In this document: piece after piece, positions 6,749 through 61,345 of the stretch
Layout of the letters: each line of letters begins with the position of its first letter
Position numbering within the stretch: the first letter of the stretch is position 1
Source of the DNA: Candidatus Campbellbacteria bacterium
GTDB taxonomy: Bacteria; Patescibacteriota; Minisyncoccia; Phycocordibacterales; EsbW-18
Direction of reading: 5' to 3'
Assembly: GCA_024653945.1 (NCBI GenBank)
Contig: JANLIT010000002.1
Location: 80,255 to 144,254 of the forward strand
Length of the DNA stretch: 64,000 bases
Position numbers and translations under genes: made by a program
The notes under the pieces: generated by a model
What the model was told of the DNA's origin: nothing
The model's input: the letters and a program-made list of their open reading frames with translations, nothing else
Database searches by the model: none

Positions 6749-7133
6749 AAAAAGCCGCCCTGAAGTCACGGAACGCAATTCGGTGAAGAATAACCTTCTG
6801 TAACAGTGCAAGACGGCCTTGGCTTAGGATTGCTCGGAGAGAAATCCTTGTGTGGATATGGGGTAAGAAGAGCCTGAACGTATAGACTGGAGGTGCGTAT
6901 GTGGGGCGCACTATTCTCGTGTCTTGTCTTGCGAGACAATTTCACGCAAAACCGTTTGTTGCTTTTTTCCTCAATCCCTATCCTTGGGAAAGAACGAATG
7001 TGTCAGAAAGAGGCAAGGAGATTTGTGTGGGGTATATTTAATTGGGCCCCTTTGCTCTGACTCTGGTAGTAAGTGTAAAGGACATGCATACGAGTGTAAA
7101 GGACAAAAGTGCATAACTCTACTCTTAATGTCC

Positions 7134-13328: not shown

Positions 13329-13405
13329 AAAATCGTGGGGTAGTGGTATACTCCAAGTGTTCACAACGTTTTAATCCTAGTTTCCAGTATCAAGTCTCTA
13401 TTTAT

Positions 13406-13666
13406 ATGTTATCCAAGAAAAAGAAAATCAAAGTTATTAAGGAAAGTGCTCGACACGATGCCGACACAGGCTCTCCTGAAGTACAAATCAATTTGCTCTC
13501 AAAGCGTATTGATGAGCTTTCAAAGCACTTGAAAGACAACCGTAAGGACAAACACTCACGGCGCGGTCTTCTCGGAATGGTGGCACAACGCCGAACGCAT
13601 TTGGCATACCTCAAAAAGAAAAACCCAGCTAAACACGCCGAACTACTCAAGAAGATCAAAGAATAA
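13406..13666 (+). CDS. rpsO: 30S ribosomal protein S15
   Basis: DTGSPEVQINLLSKRIDELSKHLKDNRKDKHSRRGLLGMVAQRRTHLAYLKKKN matches the S15 consensus (TGS.EVQ...T.RI..L..HL....KD.HSRRGL..MV..RR.LL.YL). Confidence 0.85.
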   Translation: MLSKKKKIKVIKESARHDADTGSPEVQINLLSKRIDELSKHLKDNRKDKHSRRGLLGMVAQRRTHLAYLKKKNPAKHAELLKKIKE

Positions 13667-13794: not shown

Positions 13795-14334
13795 ATGACC
13801 ATAATCAAACAGAAGGCACAGCGTGTTGCCGTTTTTATCGACGCGCAAAATCTCTATCATAGTGCACGACATCTCTACAGCGCTCGCGTTAATTTCGCAG
13901 CAATCGTTAAGGATGCAATAGGGGAGCGACCGCTCATTCGTGCAATCGCATACGTTATTTCTACCGAATCAGGTGAAGAAAAAACATTTTTTGAAGCTCT
14001 TACCAAAATGGGTATTGAGGTAAAAACAAAAGATTTACAAATTTTTGCAGGAGGCGCTAAGAAAGCTGACTGGGATGTTGGACTTGCTATGGACGCAGTG
14101 AAACTCGCACCAAAGTTGGATGCCGTTGTCATTGTGTCTGGAGACGGAGACTATGTTCCGCTCGTTGAGTACTTGCAGATTAGCCAAGGATGTCAGGTGG
14201 AAGCCATCGCATTCGGACGCTCAACATCTGCAAAACTCATTGAAGCCGCAGACCACTTCACCAATCTTGATGACGATCCCCGCAAGTACCTCATGGGGTA
14301 CCGCGGACGAAATGAGAGAAAAAATGTCAAATAG
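13795..14334 (+). CDS. NYN-domain protein (LabA/DUF88-like)
   Basis: VAVFIDAQNLYHSARH...AIAYV...VVIVSGDGDYVPLVEYLQ is the NYN/LabA motif set. Confidence 0.7.
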   Translation: MTIIKQKAQRVAVFIDAQNLYHSARHLYSARVNFAAIVKDAIGERPLIRAIAYVISTESGEEKTFFEALTKMGIEVKTKDLQIFAGGAKKADWDVGLAMDAVKLAPKLDAVVIVSGDGDYVPLVEYLQISQGCQVEAIAFGRSTSAKLIEAADHFTNLDDDPRKYLMGYRGRNERKNVK

Positions 14335-14340
14335 CAAATA

Positions 14341-14393
14341 GTAGAAAGTAGAAGGTAGAAGGTAGAAAGTAGTAAGTAGAAGGTGGTAAGCAA
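14341..14393. repeat. Low-complexity (AGTAGAAAG/GTAGAAG)n tract
   Basis: agtagaaagtagaaggtagaaggtagaaagtagtaagtagaaggtggtaagc. Its reverse complement belongs to the (TACTTN)n motif class seen at many gene ends in the window. Confidence 0.6.
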
Positions 14394-14394
14394 G

Positions 14395-14430
14395 AAAACC
14401 TCGCCGGCATGATGCCGGCGAGGTTTTTCT
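14395..14430. terminator. Bidirectional terminator after the NYN gene
   Basis: AAAA, then stem CCTCGCCGGC/GCCGGCGAGG with loop ATGAT, then TTTTT. Confidence 0.7.
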
Positions 14431-14522
14431 GTGTTGACTTTATTGCTTTTTAAGTGCAAAATCACGACCAGAAACAACCAGTTCGCTCTTTATCAACCGT
14501 AGTTCAAACCAAGGAGATTGTG

Positions 14523-14774
14523 ATGGAAAACGTGCTTCTCGACGTTGGGCTTTCTCTCCTCAAGATTCTGTACATGATGACCGCGTCGCTTCTGCTGACT
14601 GTGATGGTAAAAATCATCATCTGGGTCTGGCGCAAAGCAACCCCGAACAGTAGGGACCGCGGACTCGATATGTTGAAGTACCTCAGCCTTGTTGATGTTT
14701 GGTTTATTCTTTTTCTCATACTCTACCTGGCCAAAAGTATGGCCGAGATCTTGGAAGATGTTGCAAAAATGTAA
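14523..14774 (+). CDS. Small hypothetical membrane protein (83 aa)
   Basis: SD AAGGAG 7 nt upstream. Two TM helices. Its own GC-hairpin terminator follows. Confidence 0.45.
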   Translation: MENVLLDVGLSLLKILYMMTASLLLTVMVKIIIWVWRKATPNSRDRGLDMLKYLSLVDVWFILFLILYLAKSMAEILEDVAKM

Positions 14775-14799
14775 TTCTGACGTTCTGCGAGTAATCACT

Positions 14800-14840
14800 C
14801 GCCCCGCCTGTGCACCTCGTGTGCTCGGCGGGGCTTTTTT
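14800..14840 (+). terminator. GC-hairpin terminator (GCCCCGCC...GGCGGGGC family)
   Basis: cGCCCCGCCtgtgcacctcgtgtgctcGGCGGGGCtttttt. The loop is related to those of the terminators at 15387 and 15906. Confidence 0.65.
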
Positions 14841-14847
14841 GTTAAAC

Positions 14848-14875
14848 TTGACAAACATGTATTTAGGCATATAAT
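14848..14875 (+). promoter_or_regulatory. Sigma70-type promoter TTGACA-16-TATAAT
   Basis: cTTGACAaacatgtatttaggcaTATAATg, upstream of the sigma-region-4 protein gene. Confidence 0.6.
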
Positions 14876-14931
14876 GCGTGCCAGATTAGAGACACCGCAG
14901 TACGCAATGGCCTTTGGCCAAGGAGGTAAAG

Positions 14932-15369
14932 ATGGCGAGAGCACAGAAGTCCAAGCTTTCCACGATGGGTTCCCTGATGAAGGCAATCAGGGAGGCACTC
15001 AACCGACAAGTCAGCGTCGCGGCGGTGGAGATCAACTACCGCCTCACCCTCACCGCCGACGAGGTCCGTTCGACCCCCTGGCTTGCGGGTCTCGGGACAC
15101 AGCCCCTGAACCCCGAAGAGATTGCTGGACAACACGAGCTCCACAAACTCATCGAGGGCATTCTCCACCAGGAGAAGTTCCTCTCCAAGAGGGAGAAAGA
15201 GGTCCTGAGGCTCTACTTCGGGTTTGGGTGCAAGGAACACTCAACCTTCAAAGAGGTGGGGAAAGTTCTAGGGATTAGCGCCAACTGCGCCTGCCAGCAC
15301 CTCCACAAGGCCGTTAAGAAGTTGCGCCGTTCCCCCAAAGGACGGCAACTCGAGGCCTTCCTCAAGTAG
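14932..15369 (+). CDS. Sigma-70 region 3/4-only protein (145 aa) lacking region 2
   Basis: LSKREKEVLRLYFGFGCKEHSTFKEVGKVLGISANCACQHLHKAVKKLRR is a sigma70 region-4 HTH. No region 2 (-10 recognition) is present in this or any neighbouring ORF. SD AAGGAGG. Confidence 0.55.
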   Translation: MARAQKSKLSTMGSLMKAIREALNRQVSVAAVEINYRLTLTADEVRSTPWLAGLGTQPLNPEEIAGQHELHKLIEGILHQEKFLSKREKEVLRLYFGFGCKEHSTFKEVGKVLGISANCACQHLHKAVKKLRRSPKGRQLEAFLK

Positions 15370-15386
15370 CAGTTCCTTCCACCGTT

Positions 15387-15430
15387 GCCCCGCCGACGCA
15401 CCTTGTGTGCGAGGCGGGGCTTCTTTTTTT
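15387..15430 (+). terminator. GC-hairpin terminator of the same family
   Basis: GCCCCGCCgacgcaccttgtgtgcgaGGCGGGGCttcttttttt. Confidence 0.65.
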
Positions 15431-15503
15431 ATACACCGCGCACACACGAACAACCTCATTATTTTGTATACTTAGACTTAGATTTGAACATTGAGGAGGT
15501 GTC

Positions 15504-15902
15504 ATGCGACGAATATTTTTTGCGGTGCTCATTCTTGCAATTGGTATAGGTGCCGTGTTCTCTGTTGCACATTATATGAATGCGTACGATGTGTTCCACA
15601 AGAGAATCACTGTACTTGAAAATCGTGTTTATGCTCTTGAACAAAAACAGCGATCAGAAACCCAAGCACAACAGGTTGTGTTTGGGTTGATGAAGGGTAG
15701 GAATATTTTTGAGTGCGCAACATTTTCAAAAAAAGTATTTGGTGGCAATGTGTTCCTCCGCTACGACGACGGACGCGCCTCAAGAGGAACACTTGAGTAC
15801 GATGAGCACTCCCCAAAACCAAAACCCGGAGACCGGGTCGCAGTAACACGCACATCAAAAGGAACGACGCTTGTGCTCGTATCTCCCGAGTTGTGTAAGT
15901 AA
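15504..15902 (+). CDS. Hypothetical N-terminally membrane-anchored protein (132 aa)
   Basis: SD GAGGAGG. N-terminal TM helix (IFFAVLILAIGIGAVFSVA), then coiled-coil and globular parts. Confidence 0.45.
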   Translation: MRRIFFAVLILAIGIGAVFSVAHYMNAYDVFHKRITVLENRVYALEQKQRSETQAQQVVFGLMKGRNIFECATFSKKVFGGNVFLRYDDGRASRGTLEYDEHSPKPKPGDRVAVTRTSKGTTLVLVSPELCK

Positions 15903-15905
15903 TTT

Positions 15906-15950
15906 GCCCCGCCAATGCACTTCGTGCTAGGCGGGGCTTTTTTATTTTTC
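15906..15950 (+). terminator. GC-hairpin terminator of the same family
   Basis: GCCCCGCCaatgcacttcgtgctagGCGGGGCttttttatttttc. Confidence 0.65.
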
Positions 15951-15951
15951 T

Positions 15952-15970
15952 ATCGAGGTTTAACCTCGAT
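15952..15970. repeat. Hairpin ATCGAGG-TTTAA-CCTCGAT, related to 16888-16914
   Basis: Both hairpins share ATCGAGG...CCTCGATATT and flank the gene at 16066-16791. Confidence 0.4.
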
Positions 15971-15974
15971 ATTG

Positions 15975-16002
15975 TTGACTTTTTTTAAAAAGGGTGTATT
16001 GT
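15975..16002 (+). promoter_or_regulatory. Candidate promoter TTGACT-16-TATTGT
   Basis: gTTGACTttttttaaaaagggtgTATTGTcc. Confidence 0.4.
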
Positions 16003-16065
16003 CCACACCAGATGCACCGACCACACGGTGTGTGTCGGTTTGATTTCAGGAAAGGAGCTGGTGTC

Positions 16066-16791
16066 ATGTGTGAGTTCGTCTCATGGATACAGCCAATGGT
16101 CGGAGATCCTGTGTTTCTCGTAGACCGCGACCTCAAAGACAAGGTTATTCGCAAGCGCGTCGAGGGGTCCCAAGGAAAGGACTTCATTGGTCATGGAGCC
16201 ATCCGAGCCGCATTCCCTGAACTAAGGGGTGGAAATCGGGAGGAGCAACGGATTTGGGAGTCCTGGCGATTCCCAGAGAAGATTCAGCCGTACCTCAAGA
16301 ATCCCGCCACCGTTTTGGCAACTTGGGGAAAAATGCTTATCCTAGGACTCGATGCAAGTGGTCTTGAATTCATTGTTGAGAACGCACCGCCCGCGTGGTG
16401 GAAACCCATCGTTGATTTCTTCGTCGCGAAGAAGGCGAAGGATTCTAAGTGGGCGTATAGCCTGCTCGACACCGTGCACAATCTCACGAGGAGACAGCGG
16501 CAGATACTCGTCGAGAGTGTGGCAAAAAATCCGCAGTTGGCAGACAGTGCGCTTTTCAATTTTTCTGGTCTCACAAAGAAACAGATACAGATACTTGTTG
16601 AAGGTGCTGCAAAAAACCCAGAGTGGGCATACAGCGCACTCCGCGATACCCCTGATCTCTCAAGGAAGCAGAAGCAGGTGCTCATCGAGGGCGTGGTAAA
16701 GGATCCGAGATTTGCGGACGATACGCTCGCTCTCCCGGGTTTCACAAAGAAACAGAGGCAGATACTCGAGTCTGCTATTCGCACCAAGTAG
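16066..16791 (+). CDS. Hypothetical protein with four C-terminal ~30-aa tandem repeats (K/RQxQ-I/V-L-V/I-E-x-x-AKNP...)
   Basis: SD AAGGAG. Repeats: TRRQRQILVESVAKNPQLADSALFNFSGL, TKKQIQILVEGAAKNPEWAYSALRDTPDL, SRKQKQVLIEGVVKDPRFADDTLALPGF, TKKQRQILESAIRTK. Confidence 0.5.
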   Translation: MCEFVSWIQPMVGDPVFLVDRDLKDKVIRKRVEGSQGKDFIGHGAIRAAFPELRGGNREEQRIWESWRFPEKIQPYLKNPATVLATWGKMLILGLDASGLEFIVENAPPAWWKPIVDFFVAKKAKDSKWAYSLLDTVHNLTRRQRQILVESVAKNPQLADSALFNFSGLTKKQIQILVEGAAKNPEWAYSALRDTPDLSRKQKQVLIEGVVKDPRFADDTLALPGFTKKQRQILESAIRTK

Positions 16792-16823
16792 TTTTTTGCT
16801 CTTTCCTGTCTCATATCGAATTC

Positions 16824-16859
16824 ACGGCGGAATCCTTTTTAGGGATTCCGCCGTTTTTC
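16824..16859 (+). terminator. Rho-independent terminator
   Basis: Stem CGGCGGAATCC/GGATTCCGCCG with loop TTTTTAG, then TTTTT. Confidence 0.6.
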
Positions 16860-16875
16860 ATTCCAAGTTTTACAA

Positions 16876-16914
16876 GGCAACGCCTCCTAATATCGAGGCG
16901 TTGCCTCGATATTA
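16876..16914. repeat. Overlapping alternative hairpins (GGCAACGCCTC...GAGGCGTTGCC versus TAATATCGAGG...CCTCGATATTA)
   Basis: The two inverted repeats share the GAGGCGTTGCC segment, so both folds cannot form at once. Confidence 0.4.
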
Positions 16915-16996
16915 GAAATTGACTTTCTTAAGTTTCAAGCGTACAGTCTCGTCAGAAAATGTAGCATGCAGTGGCCCTTGGCCTAAGGAGGTTGTG

Positions 16997-17308
16997 ATGA
17001 GAAAAGATGTGCAAAGAAACGTGTTTTTTGTAGGAAGTGCTCTTACGGTAGTTGCTATTGTGGGTATCCTTTGTTTCACTTTCGGACGCGAAACGTCCGA
17101 ACAACATCTCGCTCGAGAAACTGCCCAGGTTCAGGCGAAAAATCAAAATGTCGCCAATGATCTCCTTGGTAGCCTTCGGTACATGAAAGACCCGCGGACA
17201 GGAATTTGTTTTGCGTTCACACCGACCTTCTATCCCAACGAGTTTGCGTTTACGACCATTCCGTGTGAGGCAATTCCGCCAGAGCTTCTCATCACCCCAA
17301 CACAGTGA
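16997..17308 (+). CDS. Hypothetical N-terminally membrane-anchored protein (103 aa)
   Basis: SD AAGGAGG preceded by the TGGCCCTTGGCC hairpin motif shared with the 14932 gene. TM helix VFFVGSALTVVAIVGILCF. Confidence 0.45.
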   Translation: MRKDVQRNVFFVGSALTVVAIVGILCFTFGRETSEQHLARETAQVQAKNQNVANDLLGSLRYMKDPRTGICFAFTPTFYPNEFAFTTIPCEAIPPELLITPTQ

Positions 17309-17341
17309 GAAGCACCTCTGCTTTCAAAAGGAGAAACGAAA

Positions 17342-17551
17342 ATGGCACGAGGTAGACTAGTTCTGAAACAGAAGGTGAAGTCGTTCTTTGAACCATTGGG
17401 CCAAGGTCCGGCCCTCGTATATCGCCACCTTGACGAGATGGTGAATGCCCTTGGTGCGACCAAAATCATCTCGATCAAAGATGACGTGTATGAGTACCCC
17501 GACAGAAGCAGGGCCATCATCCGCGTCGTTGTGTACGAAACCAACAAGTAG
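17342..17551 (+). CDS. Small hypothetical protein (69 aa)
   Basis: SD AAAGGAGAAA. Terminator at 17574-17603. Confidence 0.4.
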   Translation: MARGRLVLKQKVKSFFEPLGQGPALVYRHLDEMVNALGATKIISIKDDVYEYPDRSRAIIRVVVYETNK

Positions 17552-17573
17552 CCGTTCGCCCCGCTCCGCAGGA

Positions 17574-17603
17574 AGCCCCACGCTTCTCTGTGGGGCTTTT
17601 TCT
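17574..17603 (+). terminator. Rho-independent terminator
   Basis: Stem AGCCCCAC/GTGGGGCT with loop GCTTCTCT, then TTTTTCTTT. Confidence 0.6.
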
Positions 17604-17646
17604 TTACAGGAGTTTCGCTCCTGTGCAGGAGCGAAACTCCTGTAAA
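17603..17646. repeat. 44-bp perfect palindrome H3 (TTTACAGGAGTTTCGCTCCTG TGC AGGAGCGAAACTCCTGTAAA)
   Basis: Shares the outer arms TTTRCAGGAGT...ACTCCTGYAAA with 31956-31999. The inner arms differ, and in each copy the two strands change together so the stem stays perfect. Confidence 0.6.
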
Positions 17647-17789
17647 TTGATTTTTGTGCTATATTCTCAGTATTACAAAGGGGTAATTGCTCGCCTTTAC
17701 ATATACGGGTTTGAACATCATTCCGGGGTCTGCAACCGAGGGGAGATGAAAGTCAGATCTGCAATGTGAAGACGAGCTCAGTTTAGAGT

Positions 17790-20042
17790 ATGAAAAGCAA
17801 AACATTTGAGGTGGCCTTTGGTAACAAGACCCTCTCCGCAGAGTTTAACGACCTCGCCATGCAGGCGAACGGTTCGGTGATTGTTCGCTATGGCAACACC
17901 GCCGTTCTTGCAACTGCAGTCATGGGTTCAAAGGAACGTGAAGGACTGGATTATTTTCCTCTCACCGTTGATTACGAAGAAAAGTTTTACGCTGCGGGAC
18001 AAATTCTTGGAGGCAAGTACATGCGCCGAGAAGGGAAGCCGTCGGATGAAGCAATTCTCTCTGGTCGCGCAGTGGACCGCACAGTGCGTCCGCTCTTTGA
18101 CCAGCGTTTGCGTATTGAGGTGCAAGTTGTCACGACCATTCTTTCAATTGGAGAAGACGACCCAGATGTTATTGCCATTCTTGCAGCATCTCTCGCACTC
18201 AGCGTGTCAGATATTCCATGGGCAGGACCAGTTGGTGCAGTTCGTCTTGGGCGAACACCAGACGGCGCGTGGATAATTAACCCAAACTACGAAGAACGCA
18301 AAACAAATGTGCTTGATTTGCTTGTATGTGGTGCACAACAAAAGGTGAACATGATTGAAACGGGTGCACACCAAGTTTCTGAAGACATTATTATTGAAGG
18401 ACTCACCAAAGCAGTTGAAGAAATTACAAAACTTGAAACATTCCAAAACAATATCATCAAAGAATTAGGAAAAGAGAAAAAAGTATTCACATTTCCAACA
18501 CTCACCGATGCTACTCTCGCACTTTTTGAAAAAGAAATCACACCACAACTTACAGATGCCGTGTTCTGTGGTATTTCTGGTGGAGAAAAAGTTGGTGAAC
18601 TACACCACGCATGGCATGAGCTCCTCAAAACAAGTGCACCCGAGGAAAGTCGTGAACTAGCAGACTTATATTTTGAAGAAAAAGTTGAAGCGGTGTTTGA
18701 CGTTGGAATTCTTTCAGGTAAACGACCTGATGGACGCGACTTTGATACAGTTCGAGAAATCTACACACAAGCAGGAGGCGTTGCGCCAATGCTTCACGGT
18801 GCGGGTGTCTTCTACCGAGGTGAAACACACGTGCTTGCAGCACTCACGCTCGGTGGTCCTGAAGCGGTACAAGAAATGGAAGGGATGGAGGTCAAAGGCA
18901 AAAAAAGCTTTATGTTACACTACAATTTTCCTCCGTACTCAACAGGTGAAACGGGGCGCATGGGTGGCACTAACCGCCGCATGATTGGTCACGGAGCACT
19001 CGCAGAAAAAGCACTCTCCGCCGTTATTCCTCCAAAAGAGCAATTCCCATACACCATTCGTATTGTGTCAGAAGTGATGTCATCAAACGGTTCATCATCA
19101 ATGGGTTCCGTGTGCGGAGGAACGCTTGCACTTCTTGATGCGGGTGTGCCTATTCTTGCCCCTGTTGCAGGTATTGCGATGGGAGTAGTTATTGAAGAAA
19201 TATCAAATGACAAATCACAAATAGCAAAGTATAAGGTGCTTACGGATATTCAAGGACCGGAAGATCACTACGGTGACATGGACTTCAAAGTTGCAGGAAC
19301 GCGCGACGGTGTGACCGCAATGCAAATGGATGTGAAAGTTGCTGGAGTTCCACTTTCTGTTTTTCCAGAAGCATTTGAAAAAGCAAAAAAAGCGCGTCTC
19401 TTCATTTTGGATAAAATTGCAGAGACATTACCAACACACCGTGCAGAAATGAATGTACACGCACCACGTATTCTCGTCACAAAGATTAAAAAAGAATTTA
19501 TTGGTGCAGTGATTGGTGGCGGAGGAAAAACAATCAACCAAATCCGTGAACTAACCGGAACAGAAATTACGATTGAAGAAGATGGAACGGTCTTCATCAC
19601 AGGAAATGTTGAAGGGGCAGAGAAAACAAAGAAAATTATTGAAGGGATTGCGCGTGAGTATCTTGTTGGAGAAAAGTTCGAGGGTGTTGTCACACGCATC
19701 GCAGACTTTGGTTTGTTTGTGCGCATGGGCGATGAAAGCCCATTATCTGGAATGAAGGACACTGAAGGACTCGTGCACATTTCTGAAATTGCACCGTTTC
19801 GTCTTGCATCAATGGACGGTGTTGCAAATGTTGGAGACAAAGTACCCGTCATCATCAAAGAACTTGGTGAAGAAGGAAAAATTAAACTCTCTATCAAAGA
19901 TGCTGATCCTGAATTTGCCGTACGCAAAGGTTTGAAAGAGGGAACTTCCGCTGGAGGAGATTTCCGTTCAGGTGGAGACCACCGACACAGTTCTGGAGGA
20001 TACCGAGGTGGTTCAAGCCACCACAGCGGGCCACGGAGATAG
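17790..20042 (+). CDS. pnp: Polyribonucleotide nucleotidyltransferase (PNPase)
   Basis: 750 aa with two RNase PH domains, KH (IGAVIGGGGKTINQIRE) and S1 (GEKFEGVVTRIADFGLFV) domains, and a Gly/Ser/His-rich C-terminal tail. Confidence 0.92.
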   Translation: MKSKTFEVAFGNKTLSAEFNDLAMQANGSVIVRYGNTAVLATAVMGSKEREGLDYFPLTVDYEEKFYAAGQILGGKYMRREGKPSDEAILSGRAVDRTVRPLFDQRLRIEVQVVTTILSIGEDDPDVIAILAASLALSVSDIPWAGPVGAVRLGRTPDGAWIINPNYEERKTNVLDLLVCGAQQKVNMIETGAHQVSEDIIIEGLTKAVEEITKLETFQNNIIKELGKEKKVFTFPTLTDATLALFEKEITPQLTDAVFCGISGGEKVGELHHAWHELLKTSAPEESRELADLYFEEKVEAVFDVGILSGKRPDGRDFDTVREIYTQAGGVAPMLHGAGVFYRGETHVLAALTLGGPEAVQEMEGMEVKGKKSFMLHYNFPPYSTGETGRMGGTNRRMIGHGALAEKALSAVIPPKEQFPYTIRIVSEVMSSNGSSSMGSVCGGTLALLDAGVPILAPVAGIAMGVVIEEISNDKSQIAKYKVLTDIQGPEDHYGDMDFKVAGTRDGVTAMQMDVKVAGVPLSVFPEAFEKAKKARLFILDKIAETLPTHRAEMNVHAPRILVTKIKKEFIGAVIGGGGKTINQIRELTGTEITIEEDGTVFITGNVEGAEKTKKIIEGIAREYLVGEKFEGVVTRIADFGLFVRMGDESPLSGMKDTEGLVHISEIAPFRLASMDGVANVGDKVPVIIKELGEEGKIKLSIKDADPEFAVRKGLKEGTSAGGDFRSGGDHRHSSGGYRGGSSHHSGPRR

Positions 20043-20141
20043 GCGAGAAGAAAATATCAAATAACAAATACCCAATTTGCACAAAAAACGGCTCAGGTGG
20101 GCTGTTTTTTGTGCTTCTTGTCTGCAAGATAACAGTAATAC

Positions 20142-20230
20142 TTGACAAATATTATTATTTATGTATAATGGAGTTTGGACATACCCAACCCGAGTATTCC
20201 ACTTGAGTTGGTTCGAGAACGGGGGGAAAA
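20142..20230 (+). promoter_or_regulatory. Promoter (TTGACA-16-TATAAT) plus conserved leader hairpin of small-membrane-protein cassette 1
   Basis: TTGACAaatattattatttatgTATAAT, then TACCCAACCCGAGtattccaCTTGAGTTGG, a 9/10-bp stem. It is homologous to 29099-29192. Confidence 0.55.
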
Positions 20231-20416
20231 ATGACATCTAGTAGAATTTTTGTCGTCGGTGGGGGACTGTTCTTCGTTATAGGTTGGGTAGCGAACCTCT
20301 TGATCGACAACGACACAAACCACCCCGCCTATGGTGTCGTGTTGGCTCTCCTGATTTTGGGGGGTACCTTCATTGTCGCGGGGGTGAGTTCGAGAACTTT
20401 TTGGGGTAAACAGTAA
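20231..20416 (+). CDS. Small membrane protein (61 aa), paralog of 29193-29381
   Basis: MTSSRIFVVGGGLFFVIGWVANLLIDNDTNHPAYGVVLALLILGGTFIVAGV aligns with MHLSRISFLIGFCLSGFAALETVAIFWYGNETAHYEWAITARLTVGMALMIFGIGV. Two TM helices. Confidence 0.5.
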   Translation: MTSSRIFVVGGGLFFVIGWVANLLIDNDTNHPAYGVVLALLILGGTFIVAGVSSRTFWGKQ

Positions 20417-20452
20417 ACGCAGACAGAAACAACCCCCAGCCGCCCAAGAAAG

Positions 20453-20490
20453 TCGCCCGTGCGTCTTTCACGGGCGGCTTTTCTTTTTCT
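20453..20490 (+). terminator. Rho-independent terminator
   Basis: Stem TCGCCCGTG/CACGGGCGG, then CTTTTCTTTTTCT. A second GC hairpin (GTAGCCCCGCCTCTT-ACAA-GAGGCGGGGCTAC) follows at 20498-20527. Confidence 0.6.
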
Positions 20491-20630
20491 CAAAACGTAG
20501 CCCCGCCTCTTACAAGAGGCGGGGCTACTTACCACTTATTTTTTATAGTTGTATAAAAAAGACCAAACTGGTATTGTCTCGGCAGAGTTGTTCGTTGACA
20601 GGGTAACACTACCCAGAAAGGGACTGGTTT

Positions 20631-58337: not shown

Positions 58338-58552
58338 GGTTGATTTTTTAAGAGCTGAGCGATTAAAAAATCTCCACCCCACCCTCTTAATTTATCTAGT
58401 ATATCAAAGAACGGAAGAAATTTTTAGAGGGCGGGGTTCTCAAAAAATATAGTTGCTCGCGAGACTCGCGCCTTATTTTTTGGAAAAACAAAGGACGCAC
58501 CGAGGTGCGTCCGAAACCGTGCCGACATGTAAGCCATTAGAATTTCCAGCAC

Positions 58553-58906
58553 CTACACAGGCGGGCGGGGGGTGAGGTGTGGAGACTTCAGCGCGCGAAG
58601 CTCCATTTGGGAGCCGTGCACAAACCATAACACCAGACCCCCAACAAGACCGAGGATGAACACAAGCCAGTTTGCACGTGAGAGGTCGGTGGTTAGGGGG
58701 TGAAACCTTGTCGCCGGAAAGAGTGGTGAAAAAAGTATCACCAATGCGAATGCCCAGTTTTGCAACAAAAATCCTCCAGACAGGCGCTCAAGAACACATA
58801 GCGCTCCGACCATAACAAGAGGAAACCAAACCGCTTTCAAAAACTCCCACAGAAGGAATGCAAACCACAACACAATCAGGGTTGCCACTTCGCCGAGCGT
58901 TTCCAT
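58553..58906 (-). CDS. Hypothetical polytopic membrane protein
   Basis: Four hydrophobic helices. The start is taken at METLGEV; the ORF track extends to 58987. Confidence 0.35.
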   Translation of the reverse strand: METLGEVATLIVLWFAFLLWEFLKAVWFPLVMVGALCVLERLSGGFLLQNWAFALVILFSPLFPATRFHPLTTDLSRANWLVFILGLVGGLVLWFVHGSQMELRALKSPHLTPRPPV

Positions 58907-59056
58907 AAGTACCCTCCTTTGGAAAACAACACCGAGAACGTCTCTGTCTCTGAAGGTACCACCAGCGCTGTGTAATGCAATAGCCAAAGAAAAAGCCCCG
59001 CCTTAGCACAAAGTGCTTCGGCTGGGCGAAAGAACATCTTTTTTGCCAAGGCTCTC

Positions 59057-59656
59057 TTAGATATTGTATTCATCAACCAAAAAATGAGAGCCACCCGATA
59101 TCACCCCAGGCCCCTCAGTTGGTGGAGGTGGGGTCTTCTCTTCCTTGGGCCAGTACAACTTGATGGAGTACTTACCCTCGGCGGTCTTGAGAACTTCGTA
59201 GCCAGCTTCTTCGAGCGCCTTGCAGAGATTGAAAAAAATCTCCTGGTACCCCTTGAATGACGTGGTTGCGCTCTCGCTTCTTTCGCGAAGACTGAGGCTT
59301 GGCTCGCGGGCTTGAGACACCTCCGTTTGAAGATCACTGGCAATCTTCGATCCAAGACGAAGATTTACAGCAAGCTTGGTGAGTTTCTCATCAACTTCAT
59401 TTTGTCCGATGAACGAGCTTCGGATGATGAGCTCGTTCCGAAGCTCTTTGAGTTTCTTCAGGATGAGGAAGGTAAGAAGAACAATTCCCATACATCCAAG
59501 AGAAAAGAGGACAATGATATTGGAATCGGTTGGAACACCATCTCGAAACGCCAACATTCCGATGGATGTGAGTACAAACAGAGTACAAGCACCCCACAAT
59601 CTTTTTGTGACAGAGACATCCGACAAATCATATTTCAAATCTCGTTTCACATCCAC
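59057..59656 (-). CDS. Hypothetical membrane protein with two TM helices (199 aa)
   Basis: TM helices LWGACTLFVLTSIGMLAF and IIVLFSLGCMGIVLLTFLIL, followed by a coiled-coil-like C-terminus. Confidence 0.4.
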   Translation of the reverse strand: MDVKRDLKYDLSDVSVTKRLWGACTLFVLTSIGMLAFRDGVPTDSNIIVLFSLGCMGIVLLTFLILKKLKELRNELIIRSSFIGQNEVDEKLTKLAVNLRLGSKIASDLQTEVSQAREPSLSLRERSESATTSFKGYQEIFFNLCKALEEAGYEVLKTAEGKYSIKLYWPKEEKTPPPPTEGPGVISGGSHFLVDEYNI

Positions 59657-59790
59657 CTCCTCCCGCTTTTTGCGGGTGACGTTCCCGCCACAATGGGCCC
59701 ATGAGATCTGCTCGTGAGCAGAGACGATCCGCGCCTCTCAAGGAACATTCGAAACAACAATACGCTTTTGGAGCGTGGTGTCAATCGTAT

Positions 59791-59828
59791 AGAAAAAGCC
59801 CCGCCGCGCACTTGCGTGCAGGCGGGGC
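59791..59828 (-). terminator. GC-hairpin terminator for the 59835-60125 gene
   Basis: GCCCCGCCGCGCAC-TTGC-GTGCAGGCGGGGC. The minus strand has a U-run after it (plus-strand A-run at 59793-59797). Confidence 0.55.
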
Positions 59829-59834
59829 GGGGCA

Positions 59835-60125
59835 TTAGCCACCAGTCGTTCCTCCCAATGAGGGGGAATTCGGAAGCTTCGTCCCGGGCCAGAATTCCTT
59901 CTCGAATCGCTCGGCATCCTCCTGAACTCTGCGGATGATCTGTGCAATCACGGCCCGCAATTTCTCCGGCGAGTCGAACTGGGCCAAGGTGCTCAGCCGT
60001 TCGGAGATGAGAATGGCGGGCATCATCACCTGGGGCGGGGTTCCCACCTCGTACAACCTTCTGAGGATGTAGTCGGCGTGGTACTTGATGAGCTCTTCGT
60101 CACCCTGCAGTCGAGTTTCGGGCAT
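59835..60125 (-). CDS. Hypothetical protein (96 aa)
   Basis: Intact ORF with a downstream terminator. Confidence 0.4.
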   Translation of the reverse strand: MPETRLQGDEELIKYHADYILRRLYEVGTPPQVMMPAILISERLSTLAQFDSPEKLRAVIAQIIRRVQEDAERFEKEFWPGTKLPNSPSLGGTTGG

Positions 60126-60193
60126 TTCAGCCTCCTTGTTGTTGGTGAACAGGTTCGGAAAGTATTATATTTTAAAATATACTTTTGTCAAGT

Positions 60194-61255
60194 CTACAGG
60201 AGTGACTCTTGATCAGCTGGTTTTGCACCAATATGTGCACGTCCTTTACCTGTAATGATACGTCCGCGAGGGGAGCGTTCAATAAAACCAAGTTGCATGA
60301 GATATGGTTCGTACACTTCTTCAATAGTTGCGGAGTCTTCTGACAGAGAAGCTGCAAGTGTTGAGAGTCCGACGGGTCCGCCGTTGAACGTGTCAACAAT
60401 AAGTGAAAGTAATTTTTGGTCTGTCGGCGTGAGTCCGCACTCATCAATACCAAGAAGTGTGAGGGCGTCGAGCACAACCTCGTGTGTAACATCTTTTTTG
60501 TGTACTTGTGCAAAATCGCGCACGCGTTTGAGCAAATAGTTTGCTGTGCGTGGTGTTGAGCGGCTTCGTTTTGCAATTTCTTTCAATGCGGAAGCATCGG
60601 CCTCTACGCCAAGCAGTTTCGCTGAGCGTTTGAGAATAGAAAAAATTTCTTCGTCAGTATAAAACTCCAATCGAAACATTCCTCCAGAAAAACGTGAACG
60701 AAGTGGAGCAGAAAGAAGTGCAATGCGCGTTGTTGCGGCAATCAAGGTGAATGGTGGAAGATCCAATTGCACCGTGCGTGCTGACGGACCCTTGCCGATG
60801 ATGATATCGAGACGCCCCGACTCCATGGCGGGGTAGAGAACTTCTTCAATTGCAGGATTAAGACGATGGATTTCATCAATAAACAAAATATCGTTTGGTG
60901 AAAGATTGGTGAGCACCGACGCGAGGTCACCAACGCGTTCAATTGCTGGGCCCGAAGTAATTTTAATTGCGTTGTTCAGTTCGTGAGCAATGAGGTGTGC
61001 AAGTGTTGTCTTTCCAAGACCCGCCGGTCCATAAAAAAGGATATGTTCTGGTGCATGCCCGCGCTCTTTTGCGGCAGACAATAAAATATGAAGGTTGTCT
61101 TTTGTTTGAGATTGTCCGATGTACTCGTTCCAGTGAGTTGGGCGAAGAGAAGCATCCAAATACACATCGCGGATTTCTTTTGGGGTCTCCTCGGCGGGTT
61201 TTTTGGAGGGACTTGAGCCCGTTAGAGTTTTTTCTTTATCGGAAAAAGATGTCAT
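60194..61255 (-). CDS. ruvB: Holliday junction branch-migration ATPase RuvB
   Basis: [12 protein letters not shown], Walker [12 protein letters not shown], Walker [11 protein letters not shown], sensor motifs. The alternative start at 61333 would add 26 aa. Confidence 0.88.
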
Positions 61256-61316
61256 AGGAGTATGTGCCCATTTTACAGGGTATTTTGATGTGGTCCAAGA
61301 TAAAACTTTAACGGGC

Positions 61317-61345
61317 TTGACATTCTCAATCAAGTATGCTAGGAT
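61317..61345 (+). promoter_or_regulatory. Sigma70-type promoter TTGACA-17-TAGGAT driving an unannotated plus-strand transcript
   Basis: cTTGACAttctcaatcaagtatgcTAGGATact. Confidence 0.45.

Follow-up and report, generated by a model that had tools for sequence, protein, structure and literature searches.

The 64,000-nucleotide stretch analyzed here (the window), which belongs to a metagenome-assembled genome (MAG) of Candidatus Campbellbacteria, contains an islet of six open reading frames (ORFs) led by Shine-Dalgarno (SD) sequences between the gene of an NYN-domain nuclease and pnp, both of them housekeeping genes of RNA decay. The second of these ORFs, the r4 gene (g2, 14932..15369, plus strand), encodes a 145-aa orphan protein with region 4 of a sigma factor (sigma-4). 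As judged from its sequence, this product consists of a lineage-specific N-terminal segment of 57 residues that is joined to the final approximately 88 residues of a primary-type sigma factor. It is neither a sigma factor nor a frameshifted sigma factor, and it is unlikely to be one half of an essential split sigma factor. It is not a sigma factor, because promoters cannot be opened without region 2 (sigma-2). We tentatively read it as a sigma-4 mimic, which would act by protein-protein contacts.

The r4 protein matches Sigma70_r4 (PF04545) with an E-value of 2e-11 and a score of 43.6 bits (cut-off, 24.1 bits), and this model is the best Pfam model in all seven family members scanned, above GerE, HTH_10 and every other helix-turn-helix (HTH) model. 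GerE (PF00196) gives 15.9 bits versus a cut-off of 23.5 bits and, even at E<=1, matches only four of the seven members. HTH_10 and r4_2 are below their thresholds as well. In NCBIfam, the protein is aligned to the C-termini of the models for RpoD, FliA/WhiG and further sigma factors, and the family profile matches the SigA/RpoD chains in the Protein Data Bank (PDB) with E-values down to 1.8e-17 at positions 63-148, always up to the last residue of the sigma factor. By hhalign, residues 58-144 are aligned to a sigma region 3-4 profile with 99.6% probability, and the upstream residues are unaligned. The top hits of Foldseek are all primary sigma factors or constructs of region 4 in isolation. 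The AlphaFold2 models are confident only for residues ~60-145, with predicted local distance difference test (pLDDT) values of 77-90 over residues 80-140. Residues 58-145 are equivalent to the stretch of a primary sigma factor that comprises the C-terminal portion of region 3.2, regions 4.1 and 4.2, and helix H5. The likeness to region 4 of SigA/RpoD covers sequence and fold over residues 58-144 with helices 4.1 and 4.2, and includes the C-terminal H5 motif R-x-P-x-x-x-x-L-x-x-F-L; E555, F563, L607 and F610 (sigma-70 numbering) are invariant. Unlike a primary sigma factor, however, the 145-aa protein lacks regions 1.2 to 3.1, has a unique 57-aa N-terminus, has lost R584 and E585 in all members, and is free-standing and accessory.

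A preliminary description of this DNA, made by reading the sequence alone, had reported a complete sigma region-4 HTH without region 2 at 14932, and this description holds. HMMER comparison with the region 2, 3 and 4 models, which it had proposed as a check, returns region 4 only, and no non-sigma HTH model scores better. Structure prediction likewise gives a sigma region-4 fold in the C-terminal part and an N-terminus of low confidence. Its designation of the protein as region-3/4-only is correct for region 4, but region 3 is unsupported, because residues 1-57 have no profile match: neither Sigma70_r2 nor Sigma70_r3 (PF04539) is hit at E<=1 in any of the seven members, and a profile of the N-terminus alone finds nothing below E 0.2 in the PDB. 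An ungapped register of the N-terminus onto sigma-70 506-525 (SMETP..HLGDF), drawn by eye, is suggestive only and is not claimed as homology. The search for region 2 covered the 64-kb window and eight related loci (L001-L008). When SigA regions 2-4 are used as the query for tblastn, only the region-4 part is matched, and no region-2 sequence, either as an orphan ORF or otherwise, is found in the window or these loci.

The r4 gene is annotated in GenBank with a TTG start at 14914, and the resulting 151-aa form is 100% identical to MCR4274606.1 (NUW02_00965), a hypothetical protein of a 238,534-bp contig. This start overlaps the leader hairpin and the SD sequence. The true start is probably ATG at 14932, because an SD sequence is located 5 nt upstream of it and the N-terminus that it gives is similar to those of the homologues. 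A stop codon is located just 5' of the TTG, and a terminator and a promoter are located further 5'. A frameshifted sigma factor, in which an N-terminal extension would contain region 2, was considered and is rejected on account of this stop codon, the terminator T1 and the promoter upstream, and the eight homologues of equal length; the upstream extension that the preliminary description had named as a refutation was looked for and not found.

The family of the r4 protein is new and very small. An exhaustive HMMER search of 1.84 billion representatives and two profile searches of 5.8 billion clusters give only eight full-length relatives, of 143-153 aa and with a common N-terminus. Beyond these, a gap extends from E 1e-37 to 1e-16, beneath which ordinary primary-sigma fragments appear. 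Pattern scans with the family alignment find nothing in GTDB genomes, JGI metagenomes or IMG/VR. PHROGs gives generic sigma matches only, and tblastn of r4 against phages gives generic region-4 matches only. PADLOC gives weak hits to MzaA (9e-6) and PglW (1e-4), and no defence-system model is matched as a whole. Word searches of the literature on region-4-only, truncated or split sigma proteins reveal no family of this kind, namely a group-1-type sigma-4 with a novel N-terminal segment.

Of the eight homologues, seven are encoded upstream of pnp. The r4 gene is located just upstream of pnp in each of the six related loci that include sufficient flanks (L001/L002, L003, L004, L005, L006 and L007), in which polynucleotide phosphorylase (PNPase) is 74-79% identical to that of the window. 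A protein of 57-60 aa with a single transmembrane (TM) segment precedes r4 in L001, L003, L004 and L007. In L008, a GTDB species representative with 92-96% nucleotide identity to L001 on both flanks, the TM gene and the same terminator are present, and exactly the r4 ORF and its SD sequence are missing. The r4 proteins of L001 and L003 are 68% identical, versus 93% for PNPase, and the ratio of nonsynonymous to synonymous substitutions (dN/dS) is 0.25-0.5 for r4 versus 0.04-0.23 for pnp. The G+C content at third codon positions (GC3) of r4 is 0.76-0.86 in every genome (0.77 in the window), whereas that of pnp is 0.36 in the window and 0.58-0.64 in the relatives, and the core genes of the window average 0.38. 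In a codon model trained on the long genes of the window, the own reading frame is the best for every ORF of the islet except r4, for which it is the third (-0.068, versus -0.001 and +0.132 for the other two frames), reflecting atypical codon usage. Eighteen positions are invariant in the family, and its most conserved stretch is a non-sigma motif in the N-terminal segment, Y[RK]VTLTxEEV..P.LAGL. The r4 gene is a real gene under purifying selection, but a dispensable and compositionally foreign accessory.

The residues of region 4 of sigma-70 that read bases and those that bind the core enzyme have been listed (PMC4943231), and these classes were mapped onto eight family sequences. The residues reading the -35 box are poorly kept: R584, E585 and E574 in none of the eight, R586 in two, R588 in three and Q589 in five. 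The core-binding residues are kept: E555 and F563 in all eight, position 565 always as I, L or F, and position 598 always as L or I. L607 and F610 of H5 are also kept in all eight. In sigma-4, helices H1, H2 and H5 make the contacts to the beta-flap, where H5 sits within the flap hook (PMC2988021). The r4 protein is read as a sigma-4 mimic, because the docking residues are kept, the residues reading the -35 box are lost and free to vary, and sigma-2 is absent. This pattern indicates that the protein has no capacity to act as a sigma factor, and that recognition of a conserved DNA site by it is unlikely. Two options of the preliminary description, an anti-sigma-like decoy and a region-4 transcription regulator, are both still live, and the residue evidence leans toward the decoy or mimic.

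If the r4 protein is such a mimic, it could dock through the kept residues on the RNA polymerase core, at the beta-flap where sigma-4 docks, and occupy the flap tip in competition with region 4 of the housekeeping sigma factor. Alternatively, it could serve as region 4 in trans, or capture a partner that binds region 4. By either route, transcription would be shifted away from -35-dependent promoters. The N-terminal motif is probably a family-specific interaction surface. Phage T4 gp33 binds the beta-flap. The proposed mode is similar to that of T4 gp33, T4 AsiA and P23-45 gp39, in that a small protein competes for or remodels the contact between sigma-4 and the beta-flap. These phage proteins, however, have no relation in sequence or fold to the 145-aa protein, which is a sigma-4 homologue encoded on the chromosome of a bacterium of the candidate phyla radiation (CPR) with no phage context. 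According to PMC2988021 and PMC3950348, proteins that act at the flap/sigma-4 site disfavor -35-dependent promoters, and TGn extended -10 promoters still work.

In a stronger version, a free sigma-4 acting in trans at the flap tip would be an endogenous AsiA/gp33-like switch, undescribed for cellular genomes, that partitions transcription globally and is encoded by an accessory gene which is mobile among CPR bacteria. This version is unlikely. It would turn down -35-dependent promoters, including the r4 promoter itself (TTGACA/TATAAT), resulting in negative feedback, and would spare TGn extended -10 promoters, such as that of the neighboring pnp (TGnTATATT). If the protein does dock as a free sigma-4, bacteria would use the contact that region 4 makes with the beta-flap as a regulatory target by means of a competitor of sigma origin, in the way that phages use unrelated proteins. 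This would be an exaptation of a sigma fragment, and an addition to the sparse picture of transcription control in Patescibacteria, in which few regulators are recognizable.

Several observations weigh against the mimic. The core-binding residues are also residues of the fold core, and their conservation is no proof of docking on the flap of RpoB, which is not encoded in the window. The HTH has remained intact, as has the basic character of the helix after it (A[LV][KR]K[LI]R[RK]), and DNA binding is therefore possible. A GGCC palindrome in the leader of the gene itself is a candidate operator. Finally, the N-terminal 57 residues are poorly modeled (pLDDT 41-63) and have no detectable relatives, the N-terminus-only profile returning the family members alone among the 5.8 billion clusters.

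These observations are in part those expected for a stand-alone HTH regulator similar to GerE or the C-terminal domain of LuxR, which would dimerize through a long N-terminal helix and bind specific DNA. This reading is doubtful and less probable than the mimic. A possible target would be GGCC-N3-5-GGCC in the r4 and g5 leaders, resulting in autoregulation and co-regulation. In the r4 leader, TGGCC-TTT-GGCC is located directly against the SD sequence AAGGAGG (14908..14926, plus strand), and in the g5 leader TGGCC-CTT-GGCC is followed by AAGGAGG (16972..16991, plus strand). This hairpin, which the preliminary description had recorded for these two genes, is confirmed and is also conserved in orthologous leaders elsewhere. 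The 64 kb contain exactly two copies of TGGCCYTTGGCC, each abutting AAGGAGG, and GGCC-N3-5-GGCC likewise occurs only twice in the window, in both cases directly against this SD sequence. In the 87 loci retrieved for comparison, only four instances of the pattern have an SD sequence next to them, namely those in the r4 leaders of L005, L006 and L007 and in the leader of the g5 homologue of L006. The SD-adjacent hairpin is a real cis element specific to the r4- and g5-type leaders, a confinement that speaks for the regulator, as do the intact and confidently modeled HTH, the basic helix after it, the weak similarity to GerE and HTH_10, and the fusion of sigma-4 modules to Cro/C1 HTH domains in metagenomes.

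The same element, however, is not easily fitted to such a regulator. The arms are invariant, while the recognition-helix positions vary among the members (A/A/P/P/G/P/S/S; N/S/S/Q/S/S/S/G; C/S/S/D/R/R/H/R). An RNA hairpin acting on translation or stability would be favored over a dimer operator, because the spacing between the GGCC arms varies (3, 4 and 5 nt; loops TTT, CTT, GCTT, GTATC and ATTCG). A small hairpin is predicted in five of the six leaders, and the energies of the whole leaders are unremarkable. L001, L003 and L004, in which r4 follows the TM gene, do not have the palindrome. The regulators with a GerE/LuxR C-terminal domain (PF00196) are also small proteins in which a four-helix HTH of the same superfamily is the only recognizable domain, and they work, as the 145-aa protein could, without sigma-2. 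The sigma-specific H5 helix is absent from the GerE structure. In contrast, the r4 protein carries this helix, does not conserve its recognition helix, and scores below the GerE threshold. If it is an ordinary HTH regulator all the same, the result is a routine improvement in the annotation of a hypothetical protein.

It is improbable, more so than for the HTH regulator, that the protein is a decoy, in which the free sigma-4 would titrate a protein that targets region 4, such as an anti-sigma factor of the Rsd or AsiA kind, possibly encoded by a phage. Host transcription would then be protected or tuned by a mimicry like that of PhyR and NepR. The fast evolution of r4 relative to PNPase, its presence or absence between near-identical genomes, its foreign composition and the weak hits to the sigma-like defence components MzaA and PglW are consistent with a decoy, and PhyR, which counts for the sigma-4 mimic as well, is a precedent for sigma mimicry: a sigma-derived domain that is no longer a sigma factor binds the partner of a real one (PMC4598750). 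One member of the r4 family has a faint PhyR_sigma-like match (E 0.0095). PhyR, however, consists of ECF-type sigma-2 and sigma-4 with a receiver domain, whereas the 145-aa protein has only a group-1-type sigma-4, without a receiver domain and without a linked NepR-like gene. No partner gene is consistently linked to r4, no whole defence-system model is matched and no phage relatives are found. The TM protein was considered as an obligatory anti-sigma-like partner and is rejected, the TM gene being present without r4 in L008 and r4 without the TM gene in L005 and L006.

The preliminary description had compared the r4 gene with sigK/spoIIIC, as the C-terminal half of a split alternative sigma factor. 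In this case a region-2 half elsewhere in the genome would be assembled with it on RNA polymerase, as for phage SPO1 gp33/gp34 and B. subtilis SigO-RsoA, or joined to it by DNA rearrangement, as for sigK. The r4 protein is indeed sigma-derived, with the region 3.2-4 linker and H5, and ~174 kb of the contig, together with the remainder of the MAG, lies outside the region-2 search. Nevertheless, this reading is very improbable. Region 2 is found neither in the window nor in any of the r4 loci, the residues reading the -35 box are not conserved, and the gene is missing from the near-conspecific genome L008. The B. subtilis spoIIIC gene (of the pair spoIVCB/spoIIIC) is similar to r4 in that its ORF is the C-terminal part of a sigma factor. 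It is a gene fragment, and excision of the element that separates it from its partner unites the two. In contrast, r4 has its own consensus promoter, SD sequence and ATG, a conserved non-sigma N-terminus in place of region 3 and the same build in eight sequences, and neither a partner nor a recombinase-bearing element is seen for it in the window or the r4 loci. That r4 is a functionless, decaying remnant of a duplicated rpoD 3' end would agree with its dispensability, relaxed constraint and lost DNA-reading residues, but is the least credible reading, given an intact ORF in eight lineages, 18 invariant positions, a strongly conserved N-terminal motif, dN/dS well below 1 at saturating dS, and a perfect consensus promoter with an SD sequence.

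Region 4 is also found outside sigma factors in other arrangements. In metagenomes, sigma-4 modules without sigma-2 occur as stand-alone proteins of 88-95 aa, as tandem arrays of two and of ten, and as fusions of a Cro/C1 HTH with sigma-4. The 938-aa protein P0005 has ten Pfam-matched region-4 stretches, P0006 has five stretches matched by phmmer, and P0008 is among the large metagenomic proteins of tandem sigma-70 region-4 domains. P0010 (176 aa) has two region-4 domains, and P0014 and P0027 are Cro/C1-HTH fusions. These tandem arrays and HTH fusions show that the re-use of region 4 as a module beyond sigma factors is more widespread than is commonly recognized.

The six small genes of the islet are confirmed at the starts given in the preliminary description (14523, 14932, 15504, 16066, 16997 and 17342), with GGAG or AAGGAGG located 5-9 nt 5' of each start. 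All are on the plus strand. The first, g1 (14523..14774), encodes an 83-aa hypothetical protein with two hydrophobic segments (NUW02_00960), which is identified by its ORF and SD sequence and forms a singleton cluster. It is weakly similar to the TM protein of L001 (E 0.037), and may be the diverged counterpart of the TM protein of 57-60 aa that is encoded upstream of r4 in the relatives. The third, g3 (15504..15902; NUW02_00970), encodes a 132-aa ORFan with an N-terminal membrane anchor. The fourth, g4 (16066..16791; NUW02_00975), encodes a 241-aa ORFan with four C-terminal repeats of 29 aa (87 nt) at 16480-16766, which have the motif K[ND]Pxx[AW]xxxLxxxxxL[TS][KR]KQxQ[IV]L[VI]E and match no Pfam repeat family above threshold; tblastn of g4 against phages gives no match. 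The fifth, g5 (16997..17308), encodes a membrane-anchored or secreted protein of 103 aa with two conserved cysteines, the homologue of which is s1 of L006, located between r4 and pnp (46% identity, E 1.5e-10). The sixth, g6 (17342..17551), encodes a 69-aa ORFan. Relatives of g3, g4 and g6 are found in none of the libraries tried. The g5 and g6 products as read here have no exact sequence in the protein collection, the genes being annotated with other starts or unannotated.

Five terminators serve these six genes, instead of one for each gene as had been described. T1, T2, T3, T4 and T6 have the features of intrinsic (Rho-independent) terminators, namely a GC-rich hairpin and a T-run after a stop codon, with predicted free energies (dG) of -23.5 to -28.4 kcal/mol at 4-33 nt past the stop codons. 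Sites of this type number 25 at 13-19 kb, versus 7.1 +/- 2.9 in shuffled sequences. The terminator scan finds no hairpin in the 33 nt between g5 and g6. Because of this, g5 and g6 are probably co-transcribed, which gives five transcription units (g1; r4; g3; g4; g5-g6). T1 (14801..14843, plus strand; hairpin 14801-14834; dG -25.9) follows g1 and has the two-tier structure GCCCCGCC-TGT-GCAC-CTCGT-GTGC-TC-GGCGGGGC with a T-run. T2 (15387..15429; hairpin 15387-15420; dG -28.4), the r4 terminator, and T3 (15906..15948; hairpin 15906-15937; dG -23.6), the g3 terminator, are on the same strand and belong to the T1 family, T2 being 81% identical to T1. The outer stem GCCCCGCC/GGCGGGGC, for which no match is expected by chance, and the inner stem GCAC..GTGC are common to T1-T3, and the earlier suggestion that three terminators are related copies is correct. 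T4 (16824..16854, plus strand; dG -23.7), the g4 terminator, has a 14-bp stem ACGGCGGAATCC... and is unrelated to this family. T6 (17556..17603, plus strand; dG -23.5), after g6, has the structure CGCCCCGC..GAAGCCCCAC-GCTTCTCT-GTGGGGC with a T-run and is the counterpart of the ancestral r4 terminator in the relatives.

The T1-type hairpin family is not private to the islet. Two more members, at 59838-59797 and 59041-58994 on the minus strand, serve as terminators of small ORFan genes, a related inner stem is present at 58533-58491, and a GCCCCGCC stem is present at 20500. No conserved gene of the window has a terminator of this family. Rfam gives nothing near the gathering score in the islet. 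Integron attC cassettes are rejected as an explanation of the islet: promoters are present at four of the five units, the hairpins have T-runs and lack the paired RYYYAAC/GTTRRRY cores, and the nearby tyrosine recombinase is of the Xer type and is syntenic in the relatives upstream of rpsO.

Sigma-A-type promoters are detected by a consensus scan before g1, r4, g4 and g5, and none is detected for g3. All are on the plus strand. The r4 promoter (14848..14875; TTGACA-16-TATAAT) agrees with the consensus at 12 of 12 positions. The g1 promoter (14434..14462; TTGACT-17-CAAAAT) is by alignment orthologous to the r4 promoter of L006 and L007. The g4 promoter (TTGACT-16-TATTGT) is located directly against the inverted repeat TATCGAGG-N5-CCTCGATATT (15951..16002 for both). 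The g5 promoter (TTGACT-17-TACAGT) follows a perfect 13-bp palindrome, CTAATATCGAGGC/GCCTCGATATTAG (16887..16947 for both), and is orthologous to the s1 promoter of L006. The TATCGAGG-N5-CCTCGATATT palindrome occurs in two copies (15951-15973 and 16887-16915), with none expected by chance, and both copies have a terminator on one side and, on the other, the TTGACTTT -35 box of the gene that follows (g4 or g5). The second copy, which is the perfect 13-bp palindrome, overlaps the inverted repeat GGCAACGCCTC / GAGGCGTTGCC (16876-16906), and is not kept before the orthologous promoter of L006. The regulatory parts of the islet are re-used copies, which holds for the hairpin of the terminators, the -35 box TTGACTTT, the palindrome TATCGAGG and the combination of GGCC hairpin and SD sequence.

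The islet looks like an ancestral unit of promoter, leader, r4 and terminator that was split by two insertions, because the g1 promoter has its orthologue in the promoter of r4 in L006 and L007 and T6 resembles the r4 terminator of the relatives. One insertion would have placed the g1 cassette upstream of r4, and the other would have placed T2-g3-T3-g4-T4-g5-g6 between the r4 stop codon and the old terminator. In L006, the inserted pair is flanked by two terminator copies. A perfect 21-bp palindrome, TTTACAGGAGTTTCGCTCCTG / CAGGAGCGAAACTCCTGTAAA (17603..17646), is located between T6 and the extended -10 promoter of pnp in this genome only, being absent from the same place in L004-L007, and is probably an extra terminator or insulator.

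The islet occupies a recurrent insertion hotspot. The order rpsO (13394-13666; Ribosomal_S15), NYN-domain gene (13795-14334; E 5e-36) and pnp (17790-20042) is kept in ~40 Patescibacteria loci recovered with PNPase. Among these loci, the NYN-pnp gap is at most 275 bp in 25, whereas it is 0.5-2.3 kb and contains unrelated cargo in 15. By ORF translations, this cargo consists of toxin-antitoxin-like pairs, an IS200-like transposase, a secretion ATPase and ORFans. By the same means only, a RelE/ParE-like toxin with an antitoxin is seen in L021, a HEPN/nucleotidyltransferase pair with an IS200-like transposase in L039, and a PilB/PilT-like ATPase in L011, and L028 is among the further loci with unrelated cargo. 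The NYN-pnp interval is a variable slot for accessory genes. The islet shows a route of lineage-specific gene gain in reduced genomes, in which cassettes of promoter, SD sequence, ORF and terminator re-use regulatory parts and pile up in a recurrent slot between conserved housekeeping genes. At the upstream edge of the slot, after the NYN stop codon, the heptamer AGTAGAA is repeated six times in tandem at 14340-14390 (also readable with a period of 14 or 21), and a bidirectional terminator of the NYN gene is located 3' of this repeat at 14395-14427.

At the downstream edge, the extended -10 promoter of pnp is conserved and has no -35 box. The pnp leader of ~120 nt is predicted to form one long hairpin of ~32 pairs, which is conserved in five genomes (window 17657-17792; L004 925-1053; L005 727-830; L006 1668-1797; L007 958-1081) with compensatory changes at three pairs; in L005, the apical part alone is missing. 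This hairpin resembles the RNase III/PNPase autoregulatory leader of E. coli. L001, L003 and L008 have a pnp leader of a different kind. In the pnp leader of L008, the closest GTDB genome, a run of N lies between the copies of a direct duplication that spans at least 55 bp (6799-6897), an arrangement that looks like a scaffolding or masking artefact rather than biology. It has no bearing on the absence of r4, the site of which lies upstream of the artefact.

A second islet is located on the minus strand at 58490-60190, between ruvB (60194-61333) and the yebC/ruvC genes. It contains three small ORFans (60125-59835, ~59650-59057 and 58906-58553) with strong SD sequences and private terminators. 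The first has a TTGACA..TATAAT promoter, two of the terminators are of the GCCCCGCC..GCAC..GTGC..GGCGGGGC family, and GC3 is 0.51-0.74, versus the core mean of 0.38. Directly 3' of pnp, a self-contained unit (20140-20530) consists of a TTGACA-17-TATAAT-like promoter, a 61-aa ORF with two TM segments (20231-20416) and a terminator (20434-20481), and is followed on its 3' side by a GCCCCGCC..GGCGGGGC hairpin at 20500-20525.

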